Of a DNA stretch of 64,000 nt, positions 52,583 through 64,000 are shown in pieces (position 1 is the first letter of the stretch; every line of letters starts with the position of its first letter). Source of the DNA: an uncultured virus (IMG/VR IMGVR_UViG_3300001680_000191) (Duplodnaviria > Heunggongvirae > Uroviricota > Caudoviricetes); the IMG/VR virus record IMGVR_UViG_3300001680_000191, positions 1-64,000 of that record. One strand, 5' to 3'. A program made the position numbers and the translations under genes. The notes under the pieces were generated by a model, which had not been told where the DNA came from, did not search any database, and was given only the letters and a program-made list of their open reading frames with translations.

Positions 52583-52805
52583 AGAGATTTCGGAAACACA
52601 AAAAGTAACTCCTGGCGAGTACGTCTTGCATGAGCCCACAAAGCAGATTGTAATGTGTGGTGCTTTTAACCGCGAAGCTGATTTCATTCGAGCAATTGGG
52701 ATGGGCAGGTCACTTAAGGATAAAATATCAAACTTTAAAAAGATAAAGCTCACTGAAGAAGAAAGGCAGGATAGAAAAGTTAGTCGTTGTAAGGGGTGTG
52801 GATAA
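52572..52805 (+). CDS. Hypothetical protein
   Basis: AAGGAG RBS and GTG start; CKGC at the end. Confidence 0.6.
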   Translation: MKFEEISETQKVTPGEYVLHEPTKQIVMCGAFNREADFIRAIGMGRSLKDKISNFKKIKLTEEERQDRKVSRCKGCG

Positions 52806-53071
52806 TGTTTTGGACTGAGGGTTTTTTTAATTCAGGACCGTTTGCCAGCGCGAGCATCGACAGCCAAAATTTTGCGGACGGACTATACTTCGCTCATCTG
52901 TTTCAATCTTCTTTGGAACAACGCACCCTGATTGAAGAAGCTCACTTGACCGCCACGATGAATAATGATTTAGAATTAGCACTTAAAAAGAAAACTGAAT
53001 TAGATTATTTAGATGGTGTATTCAGACTAACAATGGAAATACACAAATCTGACGGTGGATTAGATTCTTGA
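52796..53071 (+). CDS. Hypothetical protein
   Basis: Coupled small ORF; start uncertain. Confidence 0.5.
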   Translation: MWIMFWTEGFFNSGPFASASIDSQNFADGLYFAHLFQSSLEQRTLIEEAHLTATMNNDLELALKKKTELDYLDGVFRLTMEIHKSDGGLDS

Positions 53072-53331
53072 CCAAGCTATACATTTATTGTTTATTTGAA
53101 CAAGACGATATTTTTCACGGAGTTTATTCTTCGTTAAAAAGTGCCCACCGCGATGCGCTAAAGATGGCCAACAAAGGACCAACCGGGGTGTATATTAAAT
53201 ATTCTGGCGAATATTTAGCACCCACGCTGCCGATCTTGAAAAAGATTTTTAACGGAGAGATAGACATAAAAGTTGAATACATTTCTTCAGCCGCCAGGGC
53301 CACCATTATTAAAACAAAACTAAAAGAGTAA
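53068..53331 (+). CDS. Hypothetical protein
   Basis: KLYIY...GVYSSLKSA motif. Confidence 0.55.
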   Translation: MTKLYIYCLFEQDDIFHGVYSSLKSAHRDALKMANKGPTGVYIKYSGEYLAPTLPILKKIFNGEIDIKVEYISSAARATIIKTKLKE

Positions 53332-53332
53332 G

Positions 53333-53590
53333 ATGGAAATTTATGTAATATACGGAATCACAGATTGTCCCGCATGTCTCCGCGCATGCGCGGATTTAAT
53401 GGATTGTGAGAAAGAATATGTTTTTGTAGAAACTGATTTTTCTAAAACATACCGGACTTCCCTTAAAAAAGAATTTGAGTGGGAGAGTTTTCCGATGATA
53501 GTGAAAGCGACCGAGGACACAGAGGAGTTCATCGGTGGCTATGATGATTTGTGTCATATTTTAGAAAAGGAATCAAGCGCCCCCACGTGA
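53333..53590 (+). CDS. Glutaredoxin
   Basis: CPAC, SFPMI, FIGGYDDL. Confidence 0.88.
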   Translation: MEIYVIYGITDCPACLRACADLMDCEKEYVFVETDFSKTYRTSLKKEFEWESFPMIVKATEDTEEFIGGYDDLCHILEKESSAPT

Positions 53591-53645
53591 AGCCTATAAA
53601 TTGAACATCGGCTCTTCACAAAATAATCATTAGAATAGTTACTAT

Positions 53646-53894
53646 GTGGAATTTAAACGCGGAAATTTGATACGGTGGGTGGTGGATCATAATGCATATG
53701 AAGCCTCCGACGACGTTTTAAGGGGTATCAGCCCTAATTATAGACATGGGATTGTCATGGAAGTATCGAATAAAGATCCAACTGCCGTGATGGTTTTTTG
53801 TTATGATTGCAAAAAGAAAAGGGAGGGCAATTGGATGATACTCGATGCGGCACACGATAGACTTGAAATTTTGAGTGGTGAATCCGATGGCTAA
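53646..53894 (+). CDS. Divergent SH3/KOW-like family member
   Basis: FKRGNLIRW...HGIVMEV...LEILS. Confidence 0.6.
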   Translation: MEFKRGNLIRWVVDHNAYEASDDVLRGISPNYRHGIVMEVSNKDPTAVMVFCYDCKKKREGNWMILDAAHDRLEILSGESDG

Positions 53895-54189
53895 TTTATT
53901 TTTCAAGAAAGAAAAGTCCCCCAAACAAGAGGCAATAAACGCACTTCTGTTAATGATCTCCAATTATTATGACGGGCGCTATGAAGTGTTGGCGACATCA
54001 GATGATGGAGGGGCTATGTTGGAAGTACAGATAGAGGTGCCTGATGTTTCTGGACACTTATCTACCCAAGCACCAACATTTCCTTTTTTTGATATTTGGC
54101 CTATTTGGATGGGCTGGCGTGTGGTGATAGCTAAAGTACCGCCGGGGTACATCGATGCAATAACCTTGGCAGCAGAGTCAGATTATTAA
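53887..54189 (+). CDS. Hypothetical protein
   Basis: Overlaps the upstream stop. Confidence 0.55.
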   Translation: MANLFFKKEKSPKQEAINALLLMISNYYDGRYEVLATSDDGGAMLEVQIEVPDVSGHLSTQAPTFPFFDIWPIWMGWRVVIAKVPPGYIDAITLAAESDY

Positions 54190-54239
54190 CATCCCTCTGA
54201 CAACATATGCTTGACTTTTTTCTTGAGTTGGGTTATATT
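54186..54239 (+). promoter_or_regulatory. Promoter with tandem upstream boxes
   Basis: TTAACA(54186), CTGACA(54197), -35 TTGACT(54211)-N17-TATATT. Confidence 0.65.
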
Positions 54240-54259
54240 TATAACATAGAGAGAAGATT

Positions 54260-54898
54260 ATGTCAATGGAACAAAAAATTACTGAAACTCTTTCAAGGTC
54301 GGTCTGCGGTGGATGGGATCGTGGCTTTTTAGAATCTATCCTTGACCAACTTGCCAAGGGTCGCAACCTATCAATCAAACAAAAACAAAGCATAGGCAAA
54401 GTATTGGCGCGTAACGGCGATGACGCGCAGGGAGTTCACGACAACTGGCAAACTGAATATATTAAGAAATATAAAAAAGATGGAATCGTGCTGGCCACAT
54501 ATCATTCCCGGCAGCCTTATTATAAGCCAATGGCCGCAGACATTTTAGCAGACAAAGTGCCGGAGTATAAAAAGTTTCTCCGCATGTATAATAATAAGTA
54601 TTCCCGCAAGGTTCTTGCAGCCCACACACAGGCGCCACGTTATGCGGTAAGCACCCATATACAGGGGAGAACCAATCTGAATGCCTACAAAGACATTGAG
54701 ATAGATAGTGTAGCGTGGACTACTCAATCGGCCGTCGTGGAAAAGTTCAAAAAGCATGGCGGGTTCATAATGGAGATTCGCCCTGAAATATATTCTCATG
54801 CCAAGGGTTCTAAACGATACAAGATTTTACCCATAGGCGCTACAATACCTCTTATTATTGAGGAACGACACCTGAAACTACATCGTAAGACCAAATAG
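54260..54898 (+). CDS. Hypothetical phage protein
   Basis: WDRGFLESILDQL...LSIKQ motif. Confidence 0.7.
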   Translation: MSMEQKITETLSRSVCGGWDRGFLESILDQLAKGRNLSIKQKQSIGKVLARNGDDAQGVHDNWQTEYIKKYKKDGIVLATYHSRQPYYKPMAADILADKVPEYKKFLRMYNNKYSRKVLAAHTQAPRYAVSTHIQGRTNLNAYKDIEIDSVAWTTQSAVVEKFKKHGGFIMEIRPEIYSHAKGSKRYKILPIGATIPLIIEERHLKLHRKTK

Positions 54899-54913
54899 GA
54901 AGCTATTTATGGT

Positions 54914-55147
54914 GTGTATCCTCCACGCTTTCAATCCGGTACTTTCGTTCGATGTGTCTATGACTTCATGGATTTTTATACCTATATTTATGACGATGTT
55001 GACGCGACAGATTACACTCACTACGGTCTTGTGATCCGCGCCGACCCCGAGTTTTTAGATTTTATGGATGAATATGTTTATGAGGTTTTGTGTGTGGACG
55101 GGATTAAGAGGCATTTTATGGAGTCAGAAATCGTAGAAGTTATGTAA
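54914..55147 (+). CDS. Divergent SH3/KOW-like family member
   Basis: FQSGTFVR...YGLVI...YEVL...FMESEIVEV. Confidence 0.5.
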   Translation: MYPPRFQSGTFVRCVYDFMDFYTYIYDDVDATDYTHYGLVIRADPEFLDFMDEYVYEVLCVDGIKRHFMESEIVEVM

Positions 55148-55155
55148 GTTTGCAC

Positions 55156-55184
55156 TTGACAGGGCGTGCGTAATGCGATATACT
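55156..55184 (+). promoter_or_regulatory. sigma70 promoter for tRNA-Leu
   Basis: TTGACA-N17-TATACT. Confidence 0.75.
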
Positions 55185-55196
55185 TTATATAGGAAG

Positions 55197-55282
55197 GGCT
55201 GATTGGTGGAACGGTATACACAGGAGACTTAAAATCTCCCGCCCGTTCGGGCTTGCGGGTTCGAGTCCCGCATCAGCTACCA
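55197..55282 (+). tRNA. tRNA-Leu (anticodon TAA)
   Basis: Acceptor stem GGCTGAT/ATCAGCT, anticodon arm GGAGA-CTTAAAA-TCTCC, long variable arm, GGTTCGAG T-loop, encoded CCA. Confidence 0.93.
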
Positions 55283-55295
55283 TTTAGGAGGTAAA

Positions 55296-55487
55296 ATGAA
55301 AAGCATTTTCAAATATGGGATAATCGTTATTTTAATCTATTTTGGGGTCAACTGGGTTGCAGATAATCCGAAGTCAATGCACCAGTTTCGCAAGATAATG
55401 AATGGCTGGGTAGCTACCGGCGCAGAAAAGGCTTCGGAAGTGTTTGACGGGATAAAAACGAGTGCCTCACAATCTCTTGACAAATAA
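55296..55487 (+). CDS. Small membrane protein
   Basis: AGGAGG RBS; N-terminal TM. Confidence 0.7.
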   Translation: MKSIFKYGIIVILIYFGVNWVADNPKSMHQFRKIMNGWVATGAEKASEVFDGIKTSASQSLDK

Positions 55488-55520
55488 AATCTTGCTTTTT
55501 TCATAGCAGGGTGCTATATT
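55466..55520 (+). promoter_or_regulatory. Promoter with tandem upstream boxes
   Basis: CTCACA(55466), TTGACA(55477), -35 TTGCTT(55492)-N17-TATATT with TG extension. Confidence 0.65.
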
Positions 55521-55542
55521 ATATACATCCAAGGAGAGCAAA

Positions 55543-55701
55543 ATGGATTTTAGTATTGGTGATATTGTGAAACATATTGAAGCTGGCAAGATTGGCACGG
55601 TAAGGCTGATCGACGGTGTGGCTGTCTGGGTATACTGGGGGTGCGGGTCGCTCGATCACACCAACTATATGCAGCTTGAAATACTTGACACGGCTGTATG
55701 A
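55543..55701 (+). CDS. GDLV-family small protein (52 aa, not in the ORF track)
   Basis: MDFSIGDIVKHIEAGKIGTV...WVYW...LEILDTAV; AAGGAG RBS. Confidence 0.7.
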   Translation: MDFSIGDIVKHIEAGKIGTVRLIDGVAVWVYWGCGSLDHTNYMQLEILDTAV

Positions 55702-55919
55702 TAAGAGTAGGCGATCTGGTAAAATACATTCCGAGTCCCTCTGCCACATTTAAGTGGGAGAGGTACACGGATGCGTATAAAGCCCTTCCTGGCGTGATTC
55801 TACGCGAAGTGAAAGCCAAGGGCACCACTACGCGCCGATTTGAGATACGCTGGCACGACGGCCAGCTATCAGAAGAATGGATAAGTTTTCTGGAACCCTT
55901 TGACAACTCTTTGACTTGA
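55698..55919 (+). CDS. GDLV-family small protein
   Basis: MIRVGDLVKY...PGVILRE...IRWHDG...LEPF. Confidence 0.75.
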   Translation: MIRVGDLVKYIPSPSATFKWERYTDAYKALPGVILREVKAKGTTTRRFEIRWHDGQLSEEWISFLEPFDNSLT

Positions 55920-55944
55920 CTTGGGGCGGTTTCGGTGTTATATT
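55900..55944 (+). promoter_or_regulatory. Promoter with tandem upstream boxes
   Basis: TTGACA(55900), TTGAC(55911), -35 TTGACT(55916)-N17-TATATT with TG extension. Confidence 0.75.
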
Positions 55945-55966
55945 ATAAGAGTAAGGAGAGGAAGAA

Positions 55967-56161
55967 ATGAGCCCTGAAGAAATGAAAGCGCGCCCCGTGC
56001 GATTTATCGTCGCTGGTGATATGGTACACGAAAATATAGGAACCTTTGGCGAATGGATCGGGCTCGTCATTGATGTTGATCAGCGTACAGGGACAGCCAA
56101 GATTCTCAGGCGAGGGAAAATCATCGAAAGAAGTGATCACGGTCGCTGGAATGTTGTTTAG
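55967..56161 (+). CDS. Divergent GDLV-family protein
   Basis: VAGDMVHE...IGLVIDV. Confidence 0.6.
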   Translation: MSPEEMKARPVRFIVAGDMVHENIGTFGEWIGLVIDVDQRTGTAKILRRGKIIERSDHGRWNVV

Positions 56162-56165
56162 ACTC

Positions 56166-56220
56166 TTGACAATCACTTGACAGGATTGCCCTTGCTACCT
56201 GTGTCCCACTATGTTATATT
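56166..56220 (+). promoter_or_regulatory. Promoter with tandem upstream boxes
   Basis: TTGACA(56166), TTGACA(56177), -35 TTGCTA(56192)-N17-TATATT with TG extension. Confidence 0.75.
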
Positions 56221-56242
56221 ATAGGTATAGAAAGGAGAAAAC

Positions 56243-56416
56243 ATGATCGAAGTTGGAAGTATTGTAGAGAGCATCGGCTTTGTGCAAGGGCACAACAAGT
56301 CAAACCACGGGCTTGTCATTAGCCTGATGGCAGACGGCAAGATCGCTCGCGTGTTCTGGATGGCTACGCAGCAGAGCGGCTTTTGCTCAGTTAAAGATTT
56401 GAAGGTGATAACATGA
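56243..56416 (+). CDS. Divergent GDLV-family protein (57 aa, not in the ORF track)
   Basis: MIEVGSIVES...HGLVIS...RVFW...DLKVIT; AAGGAG RBS. Confidence 0.7.
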   Translation: MIEVGSIVESIGFVQGHNKSNHGLVISLMADGKIARVFWMATQQSGFCSVKDLKVIT

Positions 56417-56760
56417 AAGTTTGGGTTATGCAAGGAAGCTATGAAGGCGAGTTGTTTAGCAGCGTACACCTGACTCAGAAAGGTTGCGCCATGGCGTGTA
56501 TTGCTGATATAATGGAGTTCTTGGATATTGACGACGAAGCATCGATGCTCGATGCGATACAAGACAGACAGGTATACGAGGCTCCCGTTGGAGAAAAAGA
56601 CGATATTGCGAAGCCTATTGAGTGGGACCAAGAGAAACTGAAAGAAATGACGAGCGAGCAGCTTTGGAAGATTTTTGCTGAGTGGTCCGAGATCAGTTGG
56701 GATCGAATGGCAGATCGTAGCTATAATCTCGACGCAAATCCTGTGGAGATTCAAGCATGA
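56413..56760 (+). CDS. Hypothetical protein, paralog of the next gene
   Basis: MKVWVMQ...VHLTQKGC. Confidence 0.7.
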   Translation: MKVWVMQGSYEGELFSSVHLTQKGCAMACIADIMEFLDIDDEASMLDAIQDRQVYEAPVGEKDDIAKPIEWDQEKLKEMTSEQLWKIFAEWSEISWDRMADRSYNLDANPVEIQA

Positions 56761-57062
56761 TGAACATTTGGGTAGTACGACAGACATGCACAATGGAACA
56801 CGACACCTATCTCTCCACGCATATAACGGAGAAAGGCGCGCTGATCACCGCCATTAAAATAGTGCGTGAGGATCTGACAGACGGATTCGATGAGGATGAG
56901 CTTGAAGATATGCGATCAGGCATGCCCCACCATCCCGAAGAAGATTTGATGCAGTACGACAGCAAACAACTACGGGGCATTGTTAACGACTGGTGGGAGT
57001 ATGGCTTTGATATGAATGAACACGTACAATACCAGATACATCAAACACAGGTGGTAGGATGA
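56757..57062 (+). CDS. Hypothetical protein, paralog of the previous gene
   Basis: MNIWVVR...THITEKGA. Confidence 0.7.
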   Translation: MMNIWVVRQTCTMEHDTYLSTHITEKGALITAIKIVREDLTDGFDEDELEDMRSGMPHHPEEDLMQYDSKQLRGIVNDWWEYGFDMNEHVQYQIHQTQVVG

Positions 57063-57295
57063 CAGCACTTAAAGTTTTTATTTTGGTGGGAACGATAGAT
57101 TCTCACGATGGTCAGTTTGCGACAGTCGAACTTAATCTAAATCCAGCAACGAATGGTGGCCCCGCGATGGCGGTGCTGCCCGTGTCTGCGTTTCCATGCG
57201 AGATCAAGGAAGGGAAAGTGTTTTATGTAGTTAAACTTTCCGAGCTGGAAGATGCTGTTATCATTTGCCAAAAGGAGCCTGATGAAAATAGGTGA
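57059..57295 (+). CDS. Hypothetical protein ending in the junction repeat
   Basis: Its stop lies inside ATGAAAATAGGTGA (C-terminus DENR). Confidence 0.65.
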   Translation: MTALKVFILVGTIDSHDGQFATVELNLNPATNGGPAMAVLPVSAFPCEIKEGKVFYVVKLSELEDAVIICQKEPDENR

Positions 57296-57476
57296 TTTGG
57301 TAAGGTTTGAAAGTGTCTTGAACGATGATATGGATCGTTATCAAGAAGCACATGGCTTGGTGGTGAAGATGTCTAAGACTGGACACGATACAGAGTCAGC
57401 ACAGGTGTTGTTTAGCAACGGAGAAACTGGATGGCTTGATACTCAAAGATTGGTGGTGATAAATGAAAGTAGGTGA
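57282..57476 (+). CDS. MKVGDLV-family protein
   Basis: MKIGDLVRF...LVVINESR. Confidence 0.8.
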   Translation: MKIGDLVRFESVLNDDMDRYQEAHGLVVKMSKTGHDTESAQVLFSNGETGWLDTQRLVVINESR

Positions 57477-57684
57477 CTTAGTTAAACTTCCGTCCTCGCG
57501 TGGAGCATCGTTCCGCGCTGGGCTTATTGTTGATTTTGTTGAAAAGAAATGCTGGCGCACAGAAGAACTTGGCATCAAGGTAGACTGGCGCAAGATCGAT
57601 CCAGAGCCTCACGCGGTTGTGTTGATTAACGGTAACCGCCGGACCATTCCGTTGACAGACTTGGAACCTATTGATGAAAGCTAG
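57463..57684 (+). CDS. MKVGDLV-family protein
   Basis: MKVGDLVKLP...LEPIDES. Confidence 0.8.
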   Translation: MKVGDLVKLPSSRGASFRAGLIVDFVEKKCWRTEELGIKVDWRKIDPEPHAVVLINGNRRTIPLTDLEPIDES

Positions 57685-57880
57685 CGGCGCCCCCAGCATC
57701 GGTGATCTTGTTGTCGCACTCTACGATGTGGAGCGCGGCATTTCTTGCGCTGGATTGGTGATGGAGACTAAGGGAATCGAATGTAATGTTCGGTGGTTAT
57801 CCGCAAGTTATCCTATCGGATGGTGGCAGCGTTCAGCCCTAAAAGTTATCAGCCCAAGCGGGAAGACCAAAAAAGTTTAA
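57674..57880 (+). CDS. GDLV-family protein with a short N-terminal extension
   Basis: MKASGAPSIGDLVV...LKVIS. Confidence 0.75.
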   Translation: MKASGAPSIGDLVVALYDVERGISCAGLVMETKGIECNVRWLSASYPIGWWQRSALKVISPSGKTKKV

Positions 57881-57885
57881 CGCAC

Positions 57886-57940
57886 TTAACAATCACTTGA
57901 CAACTTAGAGGTTGACTAACACCCGTTTGGGTGCTATATT
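57886..57940 (+). promoter_or_regulatory. Promoter with tandem upstream boxes
   Basis: TTAACA(57886), TTGACA(57897), -35 TTGACT(57912)-N17-TATATT with TG extension. Confidence 0.8.
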
Positions 57941-57964
57941 ATAGGTATAGAAAGGAAGAAATAT

Positions 57965-58174
57965 ATGAAAGTCGGTGACCTTGTGATGTTTGAAAGTGAC
58001 GTTCCCAAATCCCAGCGGTTCTGGACTGGCGAATATGTCAGAACAGGCATTGTTGTTGCTGAGTTATCCGGCGATCATATCGAAGCACCCGCTGTTTCAG
58101 TATTGTGGGCATCAGGCGAACTTACTGAAAGATGTCCTCCCCGGATACTGGAGGTGATCAGTGAAAGTCGGTGA
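57965..58174 (+). CDS. MKVGDLV-family protein
   Basis: MKVGDLVMF...LEVISESR. Confidence 0.8.
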   Translation: MKVGDLVMFESDVPKSQRFWTGEYVRTGIVVAELSGDHIEAPAVSVLWASGELTERCPPRILEVISESR

Positions 58175-58331
58175 TTTGGTAAGAGACGTTGAAGGCAAAT
58201 ACATCGGCATAGTTTCGCACATTGATCCTGAAGAAATCGGTGATGATGATGCGGTTATGGTTGTGTGGCTCGATGGTGATGCTTCTTGGCATACAGCAGA
58301 GTTTTTGGAGAGATTAAATGAAAATAGGTGA
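58161..58331 (+). CDS. MKVGDLV-family protein (56 aa, not in the ORF track)
   Basis: MKVGDLVRDVEGKYIGIVSHIDPEEIGD...LERLNENR. Confidence 0.8.
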   Translation: MKVGDLVRDVEGKYIGIVSHIDPEEIGDDDAVMVVWLDGDASWHTAEFLERLNENR

Positions 58332-58494
58332 TTTGGTAGAATCCCCCCATCATATGATTCGGGGCATTGTCACGGAAGTAGGCGATGGTGACGATAACTA
58401 TAATAACGGCCCAGCCGTGCGCGTCAAATGGCTTGACGGCGACGATTCGATAGAGTGGGCAGAGTATTTGAGGGTGATCAGTGAAGGTCGGTGA
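58318..58494 (+). CDS. MKVGDLV-family protein (58 aa, not in the ORF track)
   Basis: MKIGDLVESPHHMIRGIVTEV...VKWLDG...LRVISEGR. Confidence 0.8.
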   Translation: MKIGDLVESPHHMIRGIVTEVGDGDDNYNNGPAVRVKWLDGDDSIEWAEYLRVISEGR

Positions 58495-58651
58495 TCTGGT
58501 GAGAAGCCTTAAATCTGAGGGTGGCATGTTGGGTATTATAGTTGGATGGCATCGCCACAACCGTGAGGCGCGCCCAATAGTCCGATGGAATGACGGCAGA
58601 ATCAGTTGGGTGATGCCACATTTAGTCAAGGTAATGTGTCCAGTATTATGA
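58481..58651 (+). CDS. MKVGDLV-family protein (56 aa, not in the ORF track)
   Basis: MKVGDLVRSLKSEGGMLGIIVGW...PIVRWNDGR. Confidence 0.8.
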   Translation: MKVGDLVRSLKSEGGMLGIIVGWHRHNREARPIVRWNDGRISWVMPHLVKVMCPVL

Positions 58652-58845
58652 AAGTAGGCGATCTGGTAAAGGTGGGACCACCATCGCGCCCTTTTATCAC
58701 CCATCCATTTTTCGTGAGCATCGTGTTGGAAGTCAACAAGAGCGAAAACCATCCGAATGGTTTGGGGTTAGTTAAAGTGTTGGAAGCCGGCCAAGAAGCG
58801 TGGTATCCCATTGGATGCATCGAGTTGATAAATGAAAGTCGGTGA
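58648..58845 (+). CDS. MKVGDLV-family protein
   Basis: MKVGDLVKVG...IELINESR. Confidence 0.8.
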   Translation: MKVGDLVKVGPPSRPFITHPFFVSIVLEVNKSENHPNGLGLVKVLEAGQEAWYPIGCIELINESR

Positions 58846-59017
58846 TCTGGTTAAACTAAAGTGGCGAGGAAATGGTCACCCCAAGATTGGTGTGATTGTT
58901 GGTAGTTTTCAAGGTGACCTGGACTGTGAAGAATATAAAGTTTTATGGGATTGCCCGGAGTGGTCGATGGGCATGTGGAAAGAGCGTGAGTTGGTGGTGA
59001 TCAGTGAAAATAGGTGA
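58832..59017 (+). CDS. MKVGDLV-family protein
   Basis: MKVGDLVKLKWRGNGHPKIG...LVVISENR. Confidence 0.8.
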   Translation: MKVGDLVKLKWRGNGHPKIGVIVGSFQGDLDCEEYKVLWDCPEWSMGMWKERELVVISENR

Positions 59018-59192
59018 TCTGGTCGAGATTGAAAAGTGGTGCAAGAACAAGTTTAGGAAAGCTATTGTTGTTCGGGTCGAAGAATGGGATCGCGAAGGCG
59101 CATGGATTAAGTATCTCGATGGCGGCCATGGCACAAGTGACAGCGGCTATGCCATGAAACGAAACTTGAAGGTGATCAGTGAAAGTAGGTGA
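59004..59192 (+). CDS. MKVGDLV-family protein
   Basis: MKIGDLVEIE...LKVISESR. Confidence 0.8.
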   Translation: MKIGDLVEIEKWCKNKFRKAIVVRVEEWDREGAWIKYLDGGHGTSDSGYAMKRNLKVISESR

Positions 59193-59358
59193 TTTGATTA
59201 AACATAGGCATGCCGAGTGGCACACAGGCATAGTCACAAAGGTTAGCCGTGACGGACCACCGGGCTTGGTGTATGTAGAGGCTTTGTGGAGTGGCGACTG
59301 GCTTAATGAACGGAGCATAGAACAACAATATCTTGAGGTGATCAGTGAAGGTCGGTGA
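59179..59358 (+). CDS. MKVGDLV-family protein (59 aa, not in the ORF track)
   Basis: MKVGDLIKHRHAEWHTGIVTKV...LEVISEGR. Confidence 0.8.
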   Translation: MKVGDLIKHRHAEWHTGIVTKVSRDGPPGLVYVEALWSGDWLNERSIEQQYLEVISEGR

Positions 59359-59506
59359 TCTGGTTCGCGTAAATGCTCCCGTGGTGTATATCGGTATGGT
59401 TATGGTTACTAATGTGAAAGGTGGCGCTCTTGTGCGCTCGCTTGATGGCAACTATGAGTATTGGATATATGACTGGAGCGGGGAGGTTATCAGTGAAAGT
59501 CGGTGA
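59345..59506 (+). CDS. MKVGDLV-family protein (53 aa, not in the ORF track)
   Basis: MKVGDLVRVNAPVVYIGMV...GEVISESR. Confidence 0.8.
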   Translation: MKVGDLVRVNAPVVYIGMVMVTNVKGGALVRSLDGNYEYWIYDWSGEVISESR

Positions 59507-59699
59507 TCTCATATCGTTCAAGCCAAAATCGTTCGGTGATGATGACTGGTCTAACCCCGGCATTGTACTCGACAGCTATGAGCATGATGATCGGCAAACT
59601 GGAGGCTGGAAAGACTTGATATGGATTGTATGGATCGATGGTTATAAATGTATGGTCAACCAAAGAAACGATGATGTGGTTTACTTGACAGGTTCTTGA
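59493..59699 (+). CDS. MKVGDLV-family protein
   Basis: MKVGDLISFK...PGIVLD...IVWIDG. Confidence 0.8.
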   Translation: MKVGDLISFKPKSFGDDDWSNPGIVLDSYEHDDRQTGGWKDLIWIVWIDGYKCMVNQRNDDVVYLTGS

Positions 59700-59729
59700 C
59701 TTGACATTGGGGCAAATGGGTGTTATATT
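59685..59729 (+). promoter_or_regulatory. Promoter with tandem upstream boxes
   Basis: TTGACA(59685), TTGAC(59696), -35 TTGACA(59701)-N17-TATATT with TG extension. Confidence 0.8.
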
Positions 59730-59735
59730 ATAGGT

Positions 59736-59873
59736 ATGAAGAAGAAAAAGACCAACACCCCGAAGCGCCGCAACTGGATCGCAGTCGCCGCACATTTTCG
59801 GCTCGCCGGAGCGATGAAGGATCGCAAGAAGGCAGCGAACAAAAAGGCATGCCGAGGAAAGGTGCGAGTATGA
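59736..59873 (+). CDS. 45-aa highly basic peptide, probably leaderless
   Basis: MKKKKTNTPKRRNWIAVAAHFRLAGAMKDRKKAANKKACRGKVRV; ATG 6 nt after the -10; ATGA overlap with the next gene. Confidence 0.65.
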   Translation: MKKKKTNTPKRRNWIAVAAHFRLAGAMKDRKKAANKKACRGKVRV

Positions 59874-60040
59874 AAATCGGTGATCTGGTGCGTATGCAAG
59901 CGAATGGAACGATATGGTTAGTTATGTGTGTTGTCGGTGACGATGCACTGTTACATAATATGAAGACCAACTATCGAATGTGGGCGACTTGGAACCTCAC
60001 ACACGATAGACTCAACTATGAAGTGATGAGCGCAGCATGA
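59870..60040 (+). CDS. MKVGDLV-family protein
   Basis: MKIGDLVRMQ...YEVMSAA. Confidence 0.78.
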   Translation: MKIGDLVRMQANGTIWLVMCVVGDDALLHNMKTNYRMWATWNLTHDRLNYEVMSAA

Positions 60041-60213
60041 AAGTCGGTGATTTGGTAAAGAGTCGTTACGCAAGGTTTGAACTCGCTGGAGTGATGGGGG
60101 TTATCGTCAAAAATACACCCGAGTATTCCACAACCCAATATCAGGTTTTGGTGGGTGGTCGCATACGATCCTTTGCGGCGAGGCATTTGGAGGTTATCAA
60201 TGAAAGTCGGTGA
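60037..60213 (+). CDS. MKVGDLV-family protein (58 aa, not in the ORF track)
   Basis: MKVGDLVKSRY...MGVIVK...LEVINESR. Confidence 0.8.
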   Translation: MKVGDLVKSRYARFELAGVMGVIVKNTPEYSTTQYQVLVGGRIRSFAARHLEVINESR

Positions 60214-60379
60214 TTTGGTGAGAAGCCTTCAGAGTTATAACTCTGAAGGCGGCATGTTAGGTATTATAGTCGGCTGGAACCGCAGCCCTGCAAATCTCCC
60301 TCATATCTGCCCAATAGTACGATGGAATGACGGTAGAACCAGTTGGGTTATGCAACATTTAGTTAAGGTGGTGGTATGA
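60200..60379 (+). CDS. MKVGDLV-family protein
   Basis: MKVGDLVRSLQSYNSEGGMLGIIVGW; close paralog of the 58481 gene. Confidence 0.8.
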   Translation: MKVGDLVRSLQSYNSEGGMLGIIVGWNRSPANLPHICPIVRWNDGRTSWVMQHLVKVVV

Positions 60380-60660
60380 AAGTCGGTGATTTGGTAACAT
60401 TGTCAACATATTCGTTATGTTCAGAACCGATGTGGACATGGAAGAACAAGATTTGGGATGGTAAAAAGTCCCTTGTGGGGCTGGTTGTGTGTGTGAAAAA
60501 TAACCCACGTATCAGGCCATGGACATCTAAGAATGAAAGCACATTTTATTATATTAACTGGATGCAGAAAGATGGTCCTGCGAGCCGATTCGGAACAACA
60601 ATCTATCACGGCAGCGCGTCTGGATATTTCCTGCGTAAAGATTTGAAGTTTGTGAAGTGA
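60376..60660 (+). CDS. MKVGDLV-family protein (longer member)
   Basis: MKVGDLVTLS...VGLVVCV...INW...LKFVK. Confidence 0.8.
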   Translation: MKVGDLVTLSTYSLCSEPMWTWKNKIWDGKKSLVGLVVCVKNNPRIRPWTSKNESTFYYINWMQKDGPASRFGTTIYHGSASGYFLRKDLKFVK

Positions 60661-60677
60661 ACAAAAAGGAGATAAAG

Positions 60678-61022
60678 ATGCAAGTAAATGAGTTTTTTAA
60701 TACAGTTGGTTCCAACAGGAACCGACAGGTTGTGTGTGCTGATGGGTTCACCATGAGTGTGCAAGCGTTCGATGGTGGGTACTGCACACCGCGCATCAAC
60801 GACGCAGACAAGTATGAAGAAGTTGAGGTAGGCTACCCGAGCGAGCGCGAGGAACTACTGATGAACTGGGCAGAAGAACCCGACAAGCCGACACAAACGG
60901 TTTACGGATACGTGCCGGTTCAAGTGGTGACGAATGTGCTGGCAAAGCACGGCGGCATTGTTGACGGCGAGATCCCCAAGGGTGTTGCCCCAATCCCAGC
61001 AAACTTTATGGTTGACGAATAG
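60678..61022 (+). CDS. Hypothetical phage protein
   Basis: AGGAG RBS before ATG 60678; CADGFTMSVQA...YCTPR...EVGYPS. Confidence 0.7.
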   Translation: MQVNEFFNTVGSNRNRQVVCADGFTMSVQAFDGGYCTPRINDADKYEEVEVGYPSEREELLMNWAEEPDKPTQTVYGYVPVQVVTNVLAKHGGIVDGEIPKGVAPIPANFMVDE

Positions 61023-61066
61023 TTGACAACTTAGGCGTTGACAGTGGCGCTATGCTTTGCTATATT
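61012..61066 (+). promoter_or_regulatory. Promoter with tandem upstream boxes
   Basis: TTGACG(61012), TTGACA(61023), -35 TTGACA(61038)-N17-TATATT with TG extension. Confidence 0.8.
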
Positions 61067-61089
61067 ATAGGTATAGAAAGGAAAAAACT

Positions 61090-61299
61090 ATGACCGAGCA
61101 ACGACACCCAATCCACGCCGTAGGATCTTTGGTGCGGCACAAGAACCTTCCTGACAACCCTCTTGCGCTTGTTATAGACCATGCGCCTTGTTCAGATGGT
61201 AGCGGGATCATCGTCAGAGTGCTAAAGCCATCAAGGGGCAATCCAAGCGGTGAGTTTGTCACAGTATCTATCAGATGGGAACTTGTTTCTTCGTCCTGA
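61090..61299 (+). CDS. Divergent GDLV-family protein
   Basis: HAVGSLVRHK...ALVID...VRVL...WELVS. Confidence 0.65.
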   Translation: MTEQRHPIHAVGSLVRHKNLPDNPLALVIDHAPCSDGSGIIVRVLKPSRGNPSGEFVTVSIRWELVSSS

Positions 61300-61349
61300 C
61301 ATTCACTTGACAAGAAATGGCTTGCACTAATAGCCATCCCGGTTATATT
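61296..61349 (+). promoter_or_regulatory. Promoter with tandem upstream boxes
   Basis: CTGACA(61296), TTGACA(61307), -35 TTGCAC(61322)-N16-TATATT. Confidence 0.65.
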
Positions 61350-61368
61350 ATAAGAGTAAGGAGAAAAT

Positions 61369-61770
61369 ATGGGTTATCGTTCCGAAGTTGTTTTGTATGT
61401 GGGTCCAGAAGTGATGCCACAGTTTATGGTCGCGATGGCCAAGTCCCAAGCCGCCCGAGAGTTGTGCTTTGGCGATGCCGATCAGATGGTCAAAGATTAT
61501 GGTGACGTTAAAGGTTCGTTCCTATTTAAGTGGGGATGGCTCAAATGGTACGATAGCTTCCCTTGTGTGAACGCCATCGAGGACTTTATGGATTGGTGCG
61601 ACGGCGAGAAAGTTCCCACAGGCGAGAAAGACGAGGAAGGGAAAGATAAGACAGACCACGCCACCGAGTTTTTCAAGTTTATTCGCATTGGCGCAGAAAT
61701 GGATGACAATGAGCAGCGAGGCGATGCGTTTTGGGGTGACATTTATATCAACCGGAGCATTGAGTTTTAA
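61369..61770 (+). CDS. Hypothetical phage protein
   Basis: MGYRSEV...LKWYDSF...FIRIG; AAGGAG RBS. Confidence 0.75.
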   Translation: MGYRSEVVLYVGPEVMPQFMVAMAKSQAARELCFGDADQMVKDYGDVKGSFLFKWGWLKWYDSFPCVNAIEDFMDWCDGEKVPTGEKDEEGKDKTDHATEFFKFIRIGAEMDDNEQRGDAFWGDIYINRSIEF

Positions 61771-61781
61771 GTTTGAGGAAA

Positions 61782-61857
61782 GGGACCATAGCTCAACTGG
61801 CAGAGCAAAAGGCTTTTAACCTTTAGGTTCTGGGTTCGATTCCCAGTGGTCCCACCA
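61782..61857 (+). tRNA. tRNA-Lys (anticodon TTT)
   Basis: GGGACCA/TGGTCCC acceptor stem, AAAGG-CTTTTAA-CCTTT anticodon arm, GGTTCGA, CCA. Confidence 0.95.
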
Positions 61858-61864
61858 TTATCAC

Positions 61865-61941
61865 AGGCTCTTAGCTCAGTTGGTCAGAGCATTCCGCTCA
61901 TAACGGATCGGTCGTCGGTTCAAGTCCGACAGAGCCTACCA
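61865..61941 (+). tRNA. tRNA with CAT anticodon (probably Ile2, alternatively elongator Met)
   Basis: AGGCTCT/AGAGCCT acceptor stem, CTCATAA loop, GGTTCAA, CCA; the paired 1-72 and lack of GGG/CCC exclude the initiator tRNA. Confidence 0.9.
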
Positions 61942-61961
61942 CTTTTATAATAGGAGAGAAA

Positions 61962-62165
61962 ATGATTTACACAGTCATTTATGAAGAAGAAAACACAGGA
62001 AATATGGGGACTTTTACTTTCGCGGCTCAGAGGCATGACAAAAACTATGCATGGGCTGAGTTTGTTGAAAAGTATGCAGAGAAAGGGCAAGAACCGATTG
62101 CTATAATGCCCGGTCAAAGCCTCGTATATTTTATACCTGACATTTCGTTTGCAAACGTGGCTTGA
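61962..62165 (+). CDS. Hypothetical protein
   Basis: AGGAG RBS. Confidence 0.65.
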   Translation: MIYTVIYEEENTGNMGTFTFAAQRHDKNYAWAEFVEKYAEKGQEPIAIMPGQSLVYFIPDISFANVA

Positions 62166-62190
62166 CTTCGACAAGCGCCTGAGTTATAAT
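62162..62190 (+). promoter_or_regulatory. sigma70 promoter for tRNA-Arg
   Basis: TTGACT-N17-TATAAT. Confidence 0.75.
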
Positions 62191-62198
62191 ATAGTTAT

Positions 62199-62275
62199 GC
62201 TTCGGTAGCTCAGCTGGATAGAGCATCGGCCTTCTAAGCCGAGGGTCATAGGTTCAAGTCCTATCCGAAGTGCCA
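62199..62275 (+). tRNA. tRNA-Arg (anticodon TCT)
   Basis: GCTTCGG/CCGAAGT acceptor stem, TCGGC-CTTCTAA-GCCGA anticodon arm, GGTTCAA, CCA. Confidence 0.95.
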
Positions 62276-62300
62276 CTCACAAACAACAAAAGGAAACAAA

Positions 62301-62525
62301 ATGTCGTATCACGATGGCTATATTAAACCAGGCTCCACAGGTATATCCGTGGTCAATCCTCTCCATGAGGTGCAGCTTAAACTCGATAAGATCACACAGT
62401 TGGTCAGTGAGTCGTCTACCGCTGAACATGAAGATGCCGGCGTTATTAGTATCGAGCACCTTAGAATGATACTGACACTTCAAAACATTCTCGACGGCAC
62501 CGACGACGAGAAAGATGTAAAGTAA
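62301..62525 (+). CDS. Hypothetical protein
   Basis: AAGGA RBS. Confidence 0.6.
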   Translation: MSYHDGYIKPGSTGISVVNPLHEVQLKLDKITQLVSESSTAEHEDAGVISIEHLRMILTLQNILDGTDDEKDVK

Positions 62526-62537
62526 ATGTTAGTCCCC

Positions 62538-62566
62538 TTGACGCGCCCCCACATAGGGGTTATATT
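62538..62566 (+). promoter_or_regulatory. sigma70-like promoter
   Basis: TTGACG-N17-TATATT. Confidence 0.6.
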
Positions 62567-62649
62567 TATAGAGTAGGGCAAGATCCCGCGATTTTTTCTC
62601 GCCATTTTTTCTTACCAAAAATCTCTTTTCCCAACGCACAGAAAGCACA

Positions 62650-62934
62650 ATGAAAATGACACTCGTAGTAGACACGGACGACCCGAAAGGGATTGATCAC
62701 GCATGGGAAATGATTGCCATTCTTCAAAAGAAGGCTGGTCGGAACCCAACTGCGATTCGGTATACTAAAGAGTTTGGAAAGATTGAATACATTAAGTCCC
62801 TCCGCAAGTACGTGCGCGAACAGGCAGATGCACTTAAAGATGCCGACGACGATACCGTGGGTGATATTAAGGACATGCAGAGCCTTCGCAATACCAAGCA
62901 GTTTGCTGACCGTATTTTCAATGGTGAAAAATGA
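62650..62934 (+). CDS. Hypothetical protein with a possible ribosomal L7/L12 CTD-like motif
   Basis: KIEYIKSLR...SLRNTKQFAD versus L7/L12 KIAVIKAVR...GLKEAKDLVE. Confidence 0.45.
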   Translation: MKMTLVVDTDDPKGIDHAWEMIAILQKKAGRNPTAIRYTKEFGKIEYIKSLRKYVREQADALKDADDDTVGDIKDMQSLRNTKQFADRIFNGEK

Positions 62935-63110
62935 AAGTTGGTGATCTGGTGACATTTGAGTTTAACCCTGATAACATCGCGTCGTTGGGTATCGTTACTT
63001 GTATCGATCCCGAAGAAATCGGTGATGCAAATGAAGTCGAAGTTTTATGGAACGATGGCGATTCACGGAACCACTCAACAATCCATCTGGAGCTATTAAG
63101 TGAAGGTTAA
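62931..63110 (+). CDS. MKVGDLV-family protein (59 aa, not in the ORF track)
   Basis: MKVGDLVTFEF...GIVTCIDPEEIGD...LELLSEG. Confidence 0.8.
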   Translation: MKVGDLVTFEFNPDNIASLGIVTCIDPEEIGDANEVEVLWNDGDSRNHSTIHLELLSEG

Positions 63111-63288
63111 AGTTGGCGATCTGGTGAGAATGAAGGACACTATGTATGATAGTGATCTTGTCGGCATCGTTGTTGACAGGGACCATCATCCTAACTCTAC
63201 CCAAATAGGTATAAAATGGTTTGGAGGTTCAGGCAAAGTTGACTGGGAGCCCGAGCCATGGTTGGAGGTTGTCAGTGAAAGTCGGTGA
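63100..63288 (+). CDS. MKVGDLV-family protein
   Basis: MKVKVGDLVRM...LEVVSESR. Confidence 0.8.
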   Translation: MKVKVGDLVRMKDTMYDSDLVGIVVDRDHHPNSTQIGIKWFGGSGKVDWEPEPWLEVVSESR

Positions 63289-63424
63289 TCTGGTGTTTGA
63301 TAGATACCATAAAAAATACAGCATCGTTGTGGATGTGTGGGGCAGCAAGAAAACGGGGAGGTTCGTTAAACTTAACCAGGGATACAAAGTATCTGCCGAA
63401 TATATGAGGGTTGTTAGTTCTTAA
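63275..63424 (+). CDS. MKVGDLV-family protein
   Basis: MKVGDLVFDRY...MRVVSS. Confidence 0.78.
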   Translation: MKVGDLVFDRYHKKYSIVVDVWGSKKTGRFVKLNQGYKVSAEYMRVVSS

Positions 63425-63474
63425 CAATCTCTTGACGGGAAAAACTTGCGTTAACCGCTGCGCGGTGTTATAAT
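63421..63474 (+). promoter_or_regulatory. Promoter with tandem upstream boxes
   Basis: TTAACA(63421), TTGACG(63432), -35 TTGCGT(63446)-N17-TATAAT with TG extension. Confidence 0.7.
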
Positions 63475-63480
63475 ATATAT

Positions 63481-63666
63481 ATGAAAGTTGGTGATCTGGT
63501 AAAACTCAAACATCAAGGTAATGGCCACCCACGTATCGGTATCGTTAAAAGCGTGTCGGTGCGTTCTCTTGAAGAAAGGGTATGCACGTGTATGTGGGAT
63601 AAGCCATTGTGGGATTACGTTCAGTATAATGAAGGCGAGTTGGAGGTTGTTAGTGAAAGTAGGTGA
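63481..63666 (+). CDS. MKVGDLV-family protein, probably leaderless
   Basis: MKVGDLVKLKHQGNGHPRIG...LEVVSESR; ATG 6 nt after the -10 with no SD. Confidence 0.8.
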   Translation: MKVGDLVKLKHQGNGHPRIGIVKSVSVRSLEERVCTCMWDKPLWDYVQYNEGELEVVSESR

Positions 63667-63820
63667 TCTGGTGAGATACAAAGGCATTTTAGGCATTGTT
63701 ACTGCGCCTTGCATAAAGCGATGGGCTAAATCTGGTGATGTGTGGGTGCTGTGGAACAACAGGAGCAAGCCCATCGTGGAGTGCAGCGGCTTTATGGAGT
63801 TGGTAAATGCAAGTCGGTGA
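63653..63820 (+). CDS. MKVGDLV-family protein
   Basis: MKVGDLVRYKGILGIV...MELVNASR. Confidence 0.8.
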   Translation: MKVGDLVRYKGILGIVTAPCIKRWAKSGDVWVLWNNRSKPIVECSGFMELVNASR

Positions 63821-63989
63821 CTTAGTTAAACATTTTCTGACCGAGCAGATCGGCGTCATAGTTTTTATCTCGCAACATAACGGGCTTCCGATCCGTGTGC
63901 TGTGGACAACGCAGGGCGATTCCCTGTTCGGTCCCGGCAACAAAGAATGGTGTGGAGAGAATCAGTTGGATCTCTTGACAACTGCTTGA
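63807..63989 (+). CDS. MKVGDLV-family protein
   Basis: MQVGDLVKH...IGVIV...RVLW...LDLL. Confidence 0.8.
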   Translation: MQVGDLVKHFLTEQIGVIVFISQHNGLPIRVLWTTQGDSLFGPGNKEWCGENQLDLLTTA

Positions 63990-64000
63990 CAGCATTTACC

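Follow-up and report, generated by a model that had tools for sequence, protein, structure and literature searches.

Why does an uncultured phage carry 22 very small and similar genes in close succession, how are they kept together, and what might they do? The question is raised by positions 57282–63989 of the virus record IMG/VR IMGVR_UViG_3300001680_000191, of which the first 64,000 bases (the window) of a 73,630-base contig were analyzed. A preliminary description, made from the letters of the window, had proposed a diversified repertoire of early-expressed binding proteins on one scaffold, organized as exchangeable units; its observation was confirmed and its interpretation was partly supported. 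The best overall explanation, to which we give a probability of roughly 0.6, is a chained early repertoire of small barrels. The contig would encode 34 stand-alone SH3/KOW-like barrels of 49–94 amino acids (aa), 24 of them in the window, in operons of up to 10 genes that stand behind repeated sigma-70 promoter cassettes and are chained by a dual-coding joint of about 30 nucleotides (nt). Translation would be coupled by termination and reinitiation. The joint, as the sole stretch alike in all units, would let ordinary homologous recombination add, delete and swap units in frame, and the proteins, made early, would form a changeable set of small binding modules directed at various targets in the host or in rivals. 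Both the architecture and the way it evolves are very probable; a binder or host-takeover function is a tentative suggestion from the sequences.

Members of the array and their predicted fold

A six-frame scan of the window for the motif [KQRE][VI]GD[LIV] showed 23 occurrences on the + strand and none on the − strand. All but one (22 of 23) fell in 57282–63989, each after a start codon, and these are the 22 M(K/Q)(V/I)GDL genes described before, all on the + strand. They encode 49–94 aa and start with ATG (13 genes), GTG (8) or GTT (1; here a GTG lies two codons upstream, at 63100). Ten of them lie back to back at 57965–59699 with start-to-start distances of 196, 157, 163, 167, 184, 172, 175, 166 and 148, in agreement with the range of 148–196 given earlier. 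A profile of the core members found 34 members on the contig at E<1e-3, comprising 24 in the window and 10 at 67145–72244, so that the array runs past the window end as had been supposed.

About nine more divergent members had also been placed from 42448 onward. Two of these were significant, at 55698–55919 (E 2e-5 to 2e-7) and 57674–57880 (E 1e-5 to 2e-7). Six window candidates, all on the + strand, were weak with a broader profile: 42448 (E 0.26), 53634 (3e-3), 55543 (0.025), 55967 (0.1), 56243 (2e-3) and 61090 (0.01). A further weak candidate, 67329, lies outside the window, and the weak set spans E 2e-3 to 0.26. No − strand open reading frame (ORF) reached E<=1 with the broader profile. 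The significant members in the window, with the element that each was found or placed by, are as follows.

55698–55919, +, divergent member (MIRVGDLV); ATGA overlap with the weak candidate 55543–55701
57282–57476, +, member of 64 aa, E 1e-16; the non-family gene 57059–57295 overlaps its start by 14 nt
57463–57684, +, member of 73 aa; 14-nt overlap on 57282; its best match in another genome is G005_5977, at 72 bits
57674–57880, +, divergent member (MKASGAPSIGDLV...); profile E as above
57965–58174, +, member 1 of the 10-gene run, 69 aa; motif scan and profile
58161–58331, +, member of 56 aa, GTG start; 14-nt overlap
58318–58494, +, member of 58 aa; 14-nt overlap; phrog_1690, E 1.8e-5
58481–58651, +, member of 56 aa, GTG start; recent paralogue of 60200 (71% aa)
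58648–58845, +, member of 65 aa; ATGA 4-nt overlap on 58481
58832–59017, +, member of 61 aa; structure modelled, five-strand barrel
59004–59192, +, member of 62 aa, GTG start; 14-nt overlap
59179–59358, +, member of 59 aa, GTG start; 14-nt overlap
59345–59506, +, member of 53 aa, GTG start; 14-nt overlap
59493–59699, +, member of 68 aa, end of the 10-gene run; motif scan and profile
59870–60040, +, divergent member of 56 aa; motif scan and profile
60037–60213, +, member of 58 aa; ATGA overlap on 59870
60200–60379, +, member of 59 aa; unit present or absent between haplotypes
60376–60660, +, long member of 94 aa; ATGA overlap; subfamily also found in G002, G003 and G004
62931–63110, +, member of 59 aa; ATGA overlap with the non-family gene 62650–62934
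63100–63288, +, member of 62 aa, MKVKVGDLV; motif from 63106
63275–63424, +, member of 49 aa, GTG start; 14-nt overlap
63481–63666, +, member of 61 aa; TATAAT lies 8 nt ahead of its ATG; 58832 is a paralogue (48% aa)
63653–63820, +, member of 55 aa, GTG start; 14-nt overlap
63807–63989, +, member of 60 aa, MQVGDLV; 14-nt overlap

When ORFs were called from the first possible start, all 22 frames were present and seven began too far upstream (57252, 58606, 59421, 59720, 60155, 63221 and 63521). Under the same rule a promoter cassette, if translated, yields the false N-termini "MLYYRY..." at 59720–60040 and 61057–61299, and such translated cassettes give mis-started gene calls.

Member 58832 was modelled by AlphaFold2 (AF2) with a 21-member alignment. 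The model was a five-strand barrel (strands at residues 6–9, 19–27, 33–39, 45–50 and 54–58) with a predicted local distance difference test score (pLDDT) of 88.6 and a predicted template modelling score (pTM) of 0.73. Foldseek gave no PDB match at E<=1e-3 for this model, and its best rows were PWWP, R67 dihydrofolate reductase (DHFR), PetP, Spt5 KOW and the PcrA Tudor domain. VIA-align against 48,161 chains placed Spt5 KOW first (Z 8.7, root-mean-square deviation 2.0, 56 aligned), followed by PsaE (7.9), NdhS (7.8), R67 DHFR (7.7) and NusG KOW (7.6), and then by Tudor, PWWP, chromo and YorP. All of the 50 matches listed were SH3-like barrels. Because 210 chains reached Z>=5, what the model matches is a fold class and not a family. 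A typical member is, by this model, an SH3/KOW-like small beta-barrel, as the preliminary description had expected. The shared fold that it assumed for all members was seen in the model of the typical 58832; the model of the divergent 59870 (pLDDT 70, pTM 0.5) was only partly confident, in strands 1, 2 and 5, and fell under 50 in the middle, at residues 28–35 and 39–45.

The alignment showed one scaffold with variable loops. Conserved columns were M1–V7, G20-[IL]-[VI], V37-x-W39 and L54–I57, with an entropy of 0–1 bit at M1–V7, G20, V37, W39 and L54, against about 4 bits in the loop columns. The isoelectric point (pI) ranged from 4.1 to 10.8 and was under 6 in 15 of the 34 members. A DNA-mimic reading, in which all members would be acidic, was ruled out by this range.

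Database searches placed the family outside the named ones. None of the 22 members reached a Pfam gathering score (best sub-threshold match SH3/HAS-barrel, E 0.005); KOW (PF00467) and R67 DHFR (PF06442) were matched by 0 of 22 at E<=1, and PcrA_UvrD_tudor reached a sub-threshold E of 0.13 in one of 22. NCBIfam matched 0 of 21 members, and PHROGs gave weak matches in 3 of 22, to families of unknown function. A PDB profile search gave uL24 KOW at E 0.12 and a ribosomal-protein-derived SH3 (8jvz) at E 0.014. The family itself was large, with 3,655 representatives of 50%-identity clusters at E<=1e-3, and nearly all of the best 150 of these 3,655 were 50–70 aa long. A word-indexed search returned 596 matches, and all 120 among the matches listed were unnamed or "hypothetical". 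In the ESM Atlas a viral "R67 DHFR domain" cluster lay near, at 0.88, which is below the lead level of 0.9.

Fused barrels were seen in a few metagenome proteins (P0121, P0221, P0252). P0121 joins two units in a single reading frame that continues across the joint as LEVVKQVKVGDLV, the 370 aa of P0221 contain five tandem repeats, and a 3,101-aa metagenome protein has five matched stretches. When 8,000 candidates were scored for longer or fused forms, a single protein passed E<=1e-5, which counts as weak evidence.

The fold matches bear on the possibility that the mini-proteins act like KOW or LSm proteins on RNA, RNA polymerase, Rho or the ribosome, a special case of a binding function. The best folds (Spt5 KOW; NusG KOW, with 28% identity) and the weak uL24 KOW and 8jvz matches point in this direction, as do the LSm-like early proteins of T4, for which a mutant that stabilises an mRNA is described (PMC12152347). 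Yet no member matched a KOW or LSm Pfam family at E<=1, and hhalign of the family alignment (A2) gave probabilities of 0.3% for GoF and 0.1% for MotB.1, with Frd.2 outside the comparison. The 15 members with pI under 6 are poorly suited to RNA binding, and a fold matched by 210 chains is generic. An action of this kind is considered unlikely.

The joint and the promoter cassettes

The commonest layout of neighbouring members puts the start of the downstream gene 14 nt ahead of the stop of the upstream one. This joint, ...GGAGGTGATCA(G/A)TGAAAGTCGGTGA..., reads L-E-V-I-S/N-E-S-R-stop in the upstream frame and, one base later, M-K-V-G-D; the upstream stop is the TGA inside GGT-GAT, the codons of Gly4 and Asp5 of the downstream gene. 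The L-E-V-I codons of gene n spell the Shine-Dalgarno sequence GGAGGT of gene n+1, 5 nt before its start. The CCUCC end of 16S rRNA is complementary to GGAGGT, the Shine-Dalgarno core. At all 13 of the 14-nt joints in the window a purine-rich box (GGAGG, GAGG or GGTGG) stood 5 nt upstream of the start. Start and stop overlap with the ribosome site inside the upstream gene, the arrangement that marks coupled operons. Among 150 members from five genomes, 80 share exactly 14 nt with the member upstream, 12 share 4 nt with it (ATGA), and 51 have no family member directly upstream. An example of the joint and the promoter elements treated below are as follows.

58149–58185, +, joint example, about 37 nt; repeat families D1–D3, 14 copies in 52000–64000
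57912–57964, +, sigma-70-type cassette TTGACT-17-TATATT; TG before the −10, spacer hairpin of −7.9 kcal/mol, leader ATAGGTATAGAAAGGAAG, family D5
59701–59729, +, predicted sigma-70 promoter, 11/12, TG extended −10; pattern scan
61038–61089, +, predicted promoter cassette, 11/12, conserved leader; precedes the weak candidate 61090–61299

The tail S/N-E-S/G-R-stop of a member is the Shine-Dalgarno sequence, start and first codons of the next gene read out of frame and is not a protein feature, and the E of L-E-V is largely dictated by the Shine-Dalgarno sequence of the next gene. In members not followed by a 14-nt joint the E-S-R tail was absent, and an alternating hydrophobic last strand was kept (LKLLTNA, VKVVV, LKFVK). 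The last strand, kept even without the joint, is therefore a feature of the protein, unlike the tail. From the protein skeleton proposed earlier, the last strand therefore stands, while the tail and much of the E belong to the signals of the next gene.

The synonymous sites of the joint behaved differently with and without an upstream gene in the five genomes. Where the joint was in use (95 cases), Gly4 was GGT in 94 of 95 and Val3 was GTC in 60 of 95. Where it was not in use (55 cases), Gly4 was GGC in 24, GGT in 23 and GGA in 8, and Val3 was GTC in 13 of 55; these values are near the genome background (GGT 0.24, GTC 0.20), and the amino-acid motif was intact. Because the synonymous sites relax without an upstream gene, the nucleotide conservation of the joint is a by-product of dual coding, and recombination at the joint is best seen as a consequence of dual coding, not as the work of a purpose-built site. 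A common RNA structure was not found at twelve 80-nt joints, where z ranged from −2.17 to +1.11 and two of twelve were below −2.

Other genes also end in such overlaps. The non-family gene 57059–57295 reaches 14 nt into member 57282 and its product ends in D-E-N-R, and two non-family ORFs end in ATGA: 59736–59873 (45 aa, very basic) on 59870 and 62650–62934 (94 aa) on 62931. Member 57674 carries an 18-nt in-frame insertion within the joint motif (ATGAAAG, insertion, TCGGTGATCT; window 57674–57700), which provides a TAG stop for the upstream gene. The density of GATC was 9.8 per kb in the arrays (contig 57282–60660, 62931–63989 and 69968–72244) and 4.9 per kb elsewhere, an excess that arises because the joint contains GGTGATC twice.

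The promoter pattern TTGAC[ATG]-N16-18-TATA[AT]T was found 23 times on the + strand of the contig and once on the − strand, and 15 of the 23 lay in the last 19.6 kb (54–73.6 kb). Promoter-like sites numbered 34, compared with 20.5 ± 4.5 in shuffles, and four sites in 52500–64000 matched 11 of 12 consensus positions. Family D5 is a 49-nt cassette with five copies in 52500–64000, and seven or eight times the leader ATAGGTATAGAAAGGAAAAA plus a start codon followed the promoter. Of the 23 spacers, 5 had a G/C hairpin at −4.4 kcal/mol or lower (57912: −7.9; 62538: −8.1), the rest being weak or unfolded. The cassette at 57912–57964 is the predicted promoter of the 10-gene run. One relative is complete, at 293 kb with terminal repeats, and has its array 16.6–32 kb from the left end. 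Because repeated consensus sigma-70 cassettes are features of early promoters, the sequence suggests that the array is read early by the host polymerase, which gives indirect support to the early expression proposed before.

Turnover, selection and distribution of the units

Another assembly of the same phage (G001), with 100% identical DnaE, aligned over 18,772 bases with 34 mismatches. Of these, 31 fell, together with all gaps, in three patches within members 57282, 57674 and 57965. The patch at 57276–57356 (+) had 17 differing columns, and member 57965 had 18 differences at 58049–58156. Unit 60200 was absent from G001: 176 nt were missing (60200/60220 to 60375/60395), and the left flank of 60200 was joined to the body of 60376 via a 20-nt repeat common to both units, with both breakpoints inside that repeat. 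A Logan contig from run X4 had the same deletion form. A contig of 7,054 nt from run X3, of another study, matched 58149–64000 with one difference and kept unit 60200. Upstream of this match it had 157 unmatched nt in place of the 202-nt body of 57965 and, further upstream, a promoter cassette matching at 70 of 74 positions; the right edge of this replacement, 58149, is the first base of the joint repeat and the left edge lies in the promoter cassette. Three haplotypes of one phage thus differ by whole-unit loss and replacement, with edges in the joint or the promoter cassette, as expected of the exchangeable units in the preliminary description. The 20-nt repeat is shorter than the usual assembly word sizes, and each form was present in two assemblies. 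Junctions in contigs of X6 and X7 were rejected as candidates, their sides of just 20–33 nt being derived from the conserved joint of other phages.

Breakpoints inside the joint, and a replacement edge at its first base, would also be expected of an integron-like system in which the joint is the site of a phage-encoded, site-specific recombinase. Pfam matched neither an integrase nor any other family in the 15 neighbouring ORFs, and the sole recombinase among 25 larger ORFs searched with PHROGs was a general one of UvsX type, 30% of the genome lying outside the contig. Identity over 20 nt suffices for the general recombination of phages, and the synonymous sites of the joint lie near background where no gene stands upstream. 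Such a dedicated cassette system is therefore extremely improbable.

The ratio of nonsynonymous to synonymous substitution rates (dN/dS) of four paralogue pairs was 0.17, 0.08, 0.26 and 0.37. For the allelic patches it was 0.19 and 0.18 in the two larger ones and 0.59, on three differences, in the third. Values of 0.08–0.37 indicate real, constrained proteins, and by this measure the members are translated genes under purifying selection. Metagenome orthologues of 58832 (55–89% identical) varied mainly at residues 24–35 and 45–48, and the RGNGHP loop of its subfamily was kept in them. A diversity-generating retroelement was set aside, the differences to G001 being of all base types and mostly synonymous; they resemble what ordinary divergence under purifying selection, together with recombination, would produce, and no diversity-generating mechanism is needed.

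Four relatives were compared. G002, G003 and G004 (DnaE 62–64%) and G005 (41%) carried 24, 28, 33 and 31 members in 19.9-kb stretches, with a joint identical in kind and with run lengths that varied between genomes. None of the members in the five genomes had an internal stop. Most window members matched those of the relatives at family level (about 25–35 bits), and matches of at least 47 bits were reached by 57463 (72), 60376 (51), 63106 (49) and 58481 (47). One-to-one orthologues were almost absent at DnaE identities of 41–64%, so that the content is not fixed across relatives, again in line with the earlier proposal. Recent duplicates within the genome were 58481/60200 (71%) and 70322/71928 (77%).

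Unequal crossing-over at the joint could also produce an "accordion" of mostly redundant or neutral copies instead of a selected repertoire. The presence and absence of one unit between near-identical genomes, the mostly family-level matches in relatives with four at 47 bits or more, and the two recent duplicate pairs would all fit. This is improbable, since dN/dS is 0.08–0.37 even among old paralogues, the members of five genomes have no internal stops, subfamily loop residues are kept in the metagenome orthologues of one member and arrays persist at a DnaE identity of 41%. It is likewise highly unlikely that coupled translation supplies equal amounts of paralogous barrels for one hetero-oligomer, a mixed ring or fibre as in Sm/LSm. 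SH3/Sm-like barrels often oligomerise, up to 10 genes appear tightly coupled in one operon, and the tetramer R67 DHFR is among the fold matches; however, the set is not conserved, a unit being lost or replaced in near-identical genomes and orthologues being almost absent in relatives, and the run length differs by genome.

A survey of IMG/VR with a DNA pattern of the joint matched at least 158 stretches. Of 158 such loci, 144 held at least one member, 63 at least five and 39 at least ten, with a density of up to 24 members in 9 kb, and in every locus but one the members were confined to one strand. Loci L001–L080 included 33 distinct contigs with at least five members. In bacterial and archaeal genomes (596 Gb) the joint pattern was found at 119 loci as single matches, and three of the 119 held members (6, 4 and 2). 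Two of these, L208 (a contig of 11,055 bases in a metagenome-assembled genome, MAG, binned to Flavobacteriales) and L232, had 6 and 4 family members. The member-bearing MAG contigs are probably phage contigs binned with the genome and give no reliable host hint. Since the joint occurs in cellular genomes only as single matches and members in three of 119 loci, the arrays are, by their distribution, assigned to phages, and the family hardly occurs outside viruses. One member was searched by tblastn against 50,697 isolate-phage records, with no match at E<=0.01, and the closest isolate, Mel-JY01, had 0 members. Full-text literature searches, with subscription journals and supplements outside their scope, returned no description of the chained arrays or the motif.

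The reading of the array as a binding repertoire is drawn from the fixed barrel with free loops, the charge range, the subfamily loops, the early-type promoters, the turnover and the persistence in distant relatives. In a wider and rather doubtful form, the joint would be a universal adaptor that lets any unit follow any other in frame, its neighbours providing its ribosome site and stop. Large marine phages would thereby have an integrase-free cassette system, through which their populations shuffle a common pool of at least 3,655 binder types as a rapidly changing early counter-defence or host-takeover toolkit.

Several points weigh against the chained repertoire of early binders. On the codon evidence, the conservation of the joint is not a dedicated recombination signal. 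Early timing and translational coupling are read from sequence signals alone. In the models the shared fold holds for typical members only, the model of 59870 being partly confident, and a fold class says nothing specific on function. That a unit can be lost at no visible cost is as compatible with dispensable copies as with a useful repertoire. The near-identical genomes are metagenome assemblies, some of which may derive from one study.

The source is a large uncultured marine or hydrothermal-vent myophage with a T4-like sheath, and DNA of this stretch recurs in hydrothermal-vent and marine metagenomes. All large genes of the contig are on the + strand, and PHROGs identified a tail sheath, tail tube, DnaE-type polymerase, UvsX-like recombinase, DnaB helicase, ribonucleotide reductase and GroEL. 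GroEL and the DnaE-type polymerase lie at window 40852–42447 and 28667–32122; besides the latter, a second ORF of 395 aa, at 13929–15116, likewise matched a DNA-polymerase PHROG. No close isolate phage was found among 1,439 records, in which DnaE identity was at most 31%; the best isolate match was Microcystis phage Mel-JY01 (sheath 36%, RecA 32%). The array region is probably an early, hyperplastic region of about 18 kb (about 54–73.6 kb of the contig). Within the mini-gene region, four tRNA genes were found in the window:

55197–55282, tRNA Leu-TAA
61782–61857, tRNA Lys-TTT
61865–61941, tRNA Met-CAT
62199–62275, tRNA Arg-TCT

Two of the four have their own 11/12 sigma-70 promoter match directly upstream (55156 and 62162). 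Rfam on 52000–64000 gave the four tRNAs and nothing else, and megablast of 57000–64000 gave a single match type, a tRNA.

If the proposed explanation is true, a very large family that lies outside Pfam, NCBIfam and mostly PHROGs, and takes several per cent of the genome in many large marine phages, gains a structural class and a genomic logic. One short sequence would serve as last strand, ribosome site, start and first strand, stop, and homology patch for in-frame exchange. The arrays would be natural libraries of minimal binding scaffolds and candidate anti-defence or host-control factors. In practice, gene callers mis-start or miss such genes, as shown by the seven over-extended starts among the 22 genes.

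Comparison with known systems

The predicted barrel resembles the KOW/Tudor/chromo/PWWP class (Spt5 and NusG KOW; 4zn3, 2xhc) in its five strands, its length of about 55 residues and Z values of 7.6–8.7. The N-terminal G-D-x-V strand and the second strand G-[IL]-V are taken by us to resemble the KOW motif. Barrels of that class are domains, whereas the array members stand alone, and the function is not transferable. R67 (type II, DfrB) DHFR (1vie) is similar in fold, with Z 7.7, 27% identity over 55 residues and a Foldseek template modelling score of 0.73–0.78; PF06442 was unmatched, and the members are far too diverse for one active site.

Integron cassettes and the "genomic accordions" of poxviruses likewise consist of units that can be exchanged or amplified behind one promoter, and a change of copy number serves there as a route of adaptation. 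Unlike in integrons, no integrase or attC-type site was found near the array, and unlike in accordions the units are diverged paralogues and not recent identical copies.

The T4 early proteins GoF, MotB.1 and Frd.2 form a predicted LSm-like fold family (Kim et al. 2025, PMC12152347). They are, like the array members, small early phage proteins with a predicted barrel of the SH3/Sm class and several paralogues per genome; they differ in having 119–141 aa with extra C-terminal parts, and in occurring three per genome, unchained and outside arrays. The hhalign probabilities given above for GoF and MotB.1 show no link in sequence. The array phage is itself only distantly T4-like, with a sheath identity of at most 36% and DnaE in place of a family-B polymerase.

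In the hyperplastic regions of T4-type phages, promoter-early stem-loop (PeSL) cassettes mediate modular shuffling (Arbiol et al. 2010, PMC2839356). The likeness is that small non-essential early genes stand behind repeated consensus sigma-70 promoters, and that indels and replacements between close relatives end in short repeats. Sigma-70 promoter matches clustered among small variable genes were found here as well. Indels ending in promoter repeats were not, since the 60200 indel ends in the joint; a promoter-cassette edge was seen only at the left of the X3 replacement. PeSL repeats are intergenic and shuffle unrelated ORFans, whereas the indel repeat of the array is a coding joint that serves both neighbours as stop, ribosome site and start, and the units are paralogues of one family. 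If the proposed explanation holds, modular shuffling of the PeSL type would extend from intergenic into coding sequence. By analogy, PeSL shuffling is the closest parallel to the array in mechanism, and the LSm-like early proteins of T4 are the closest in kind.

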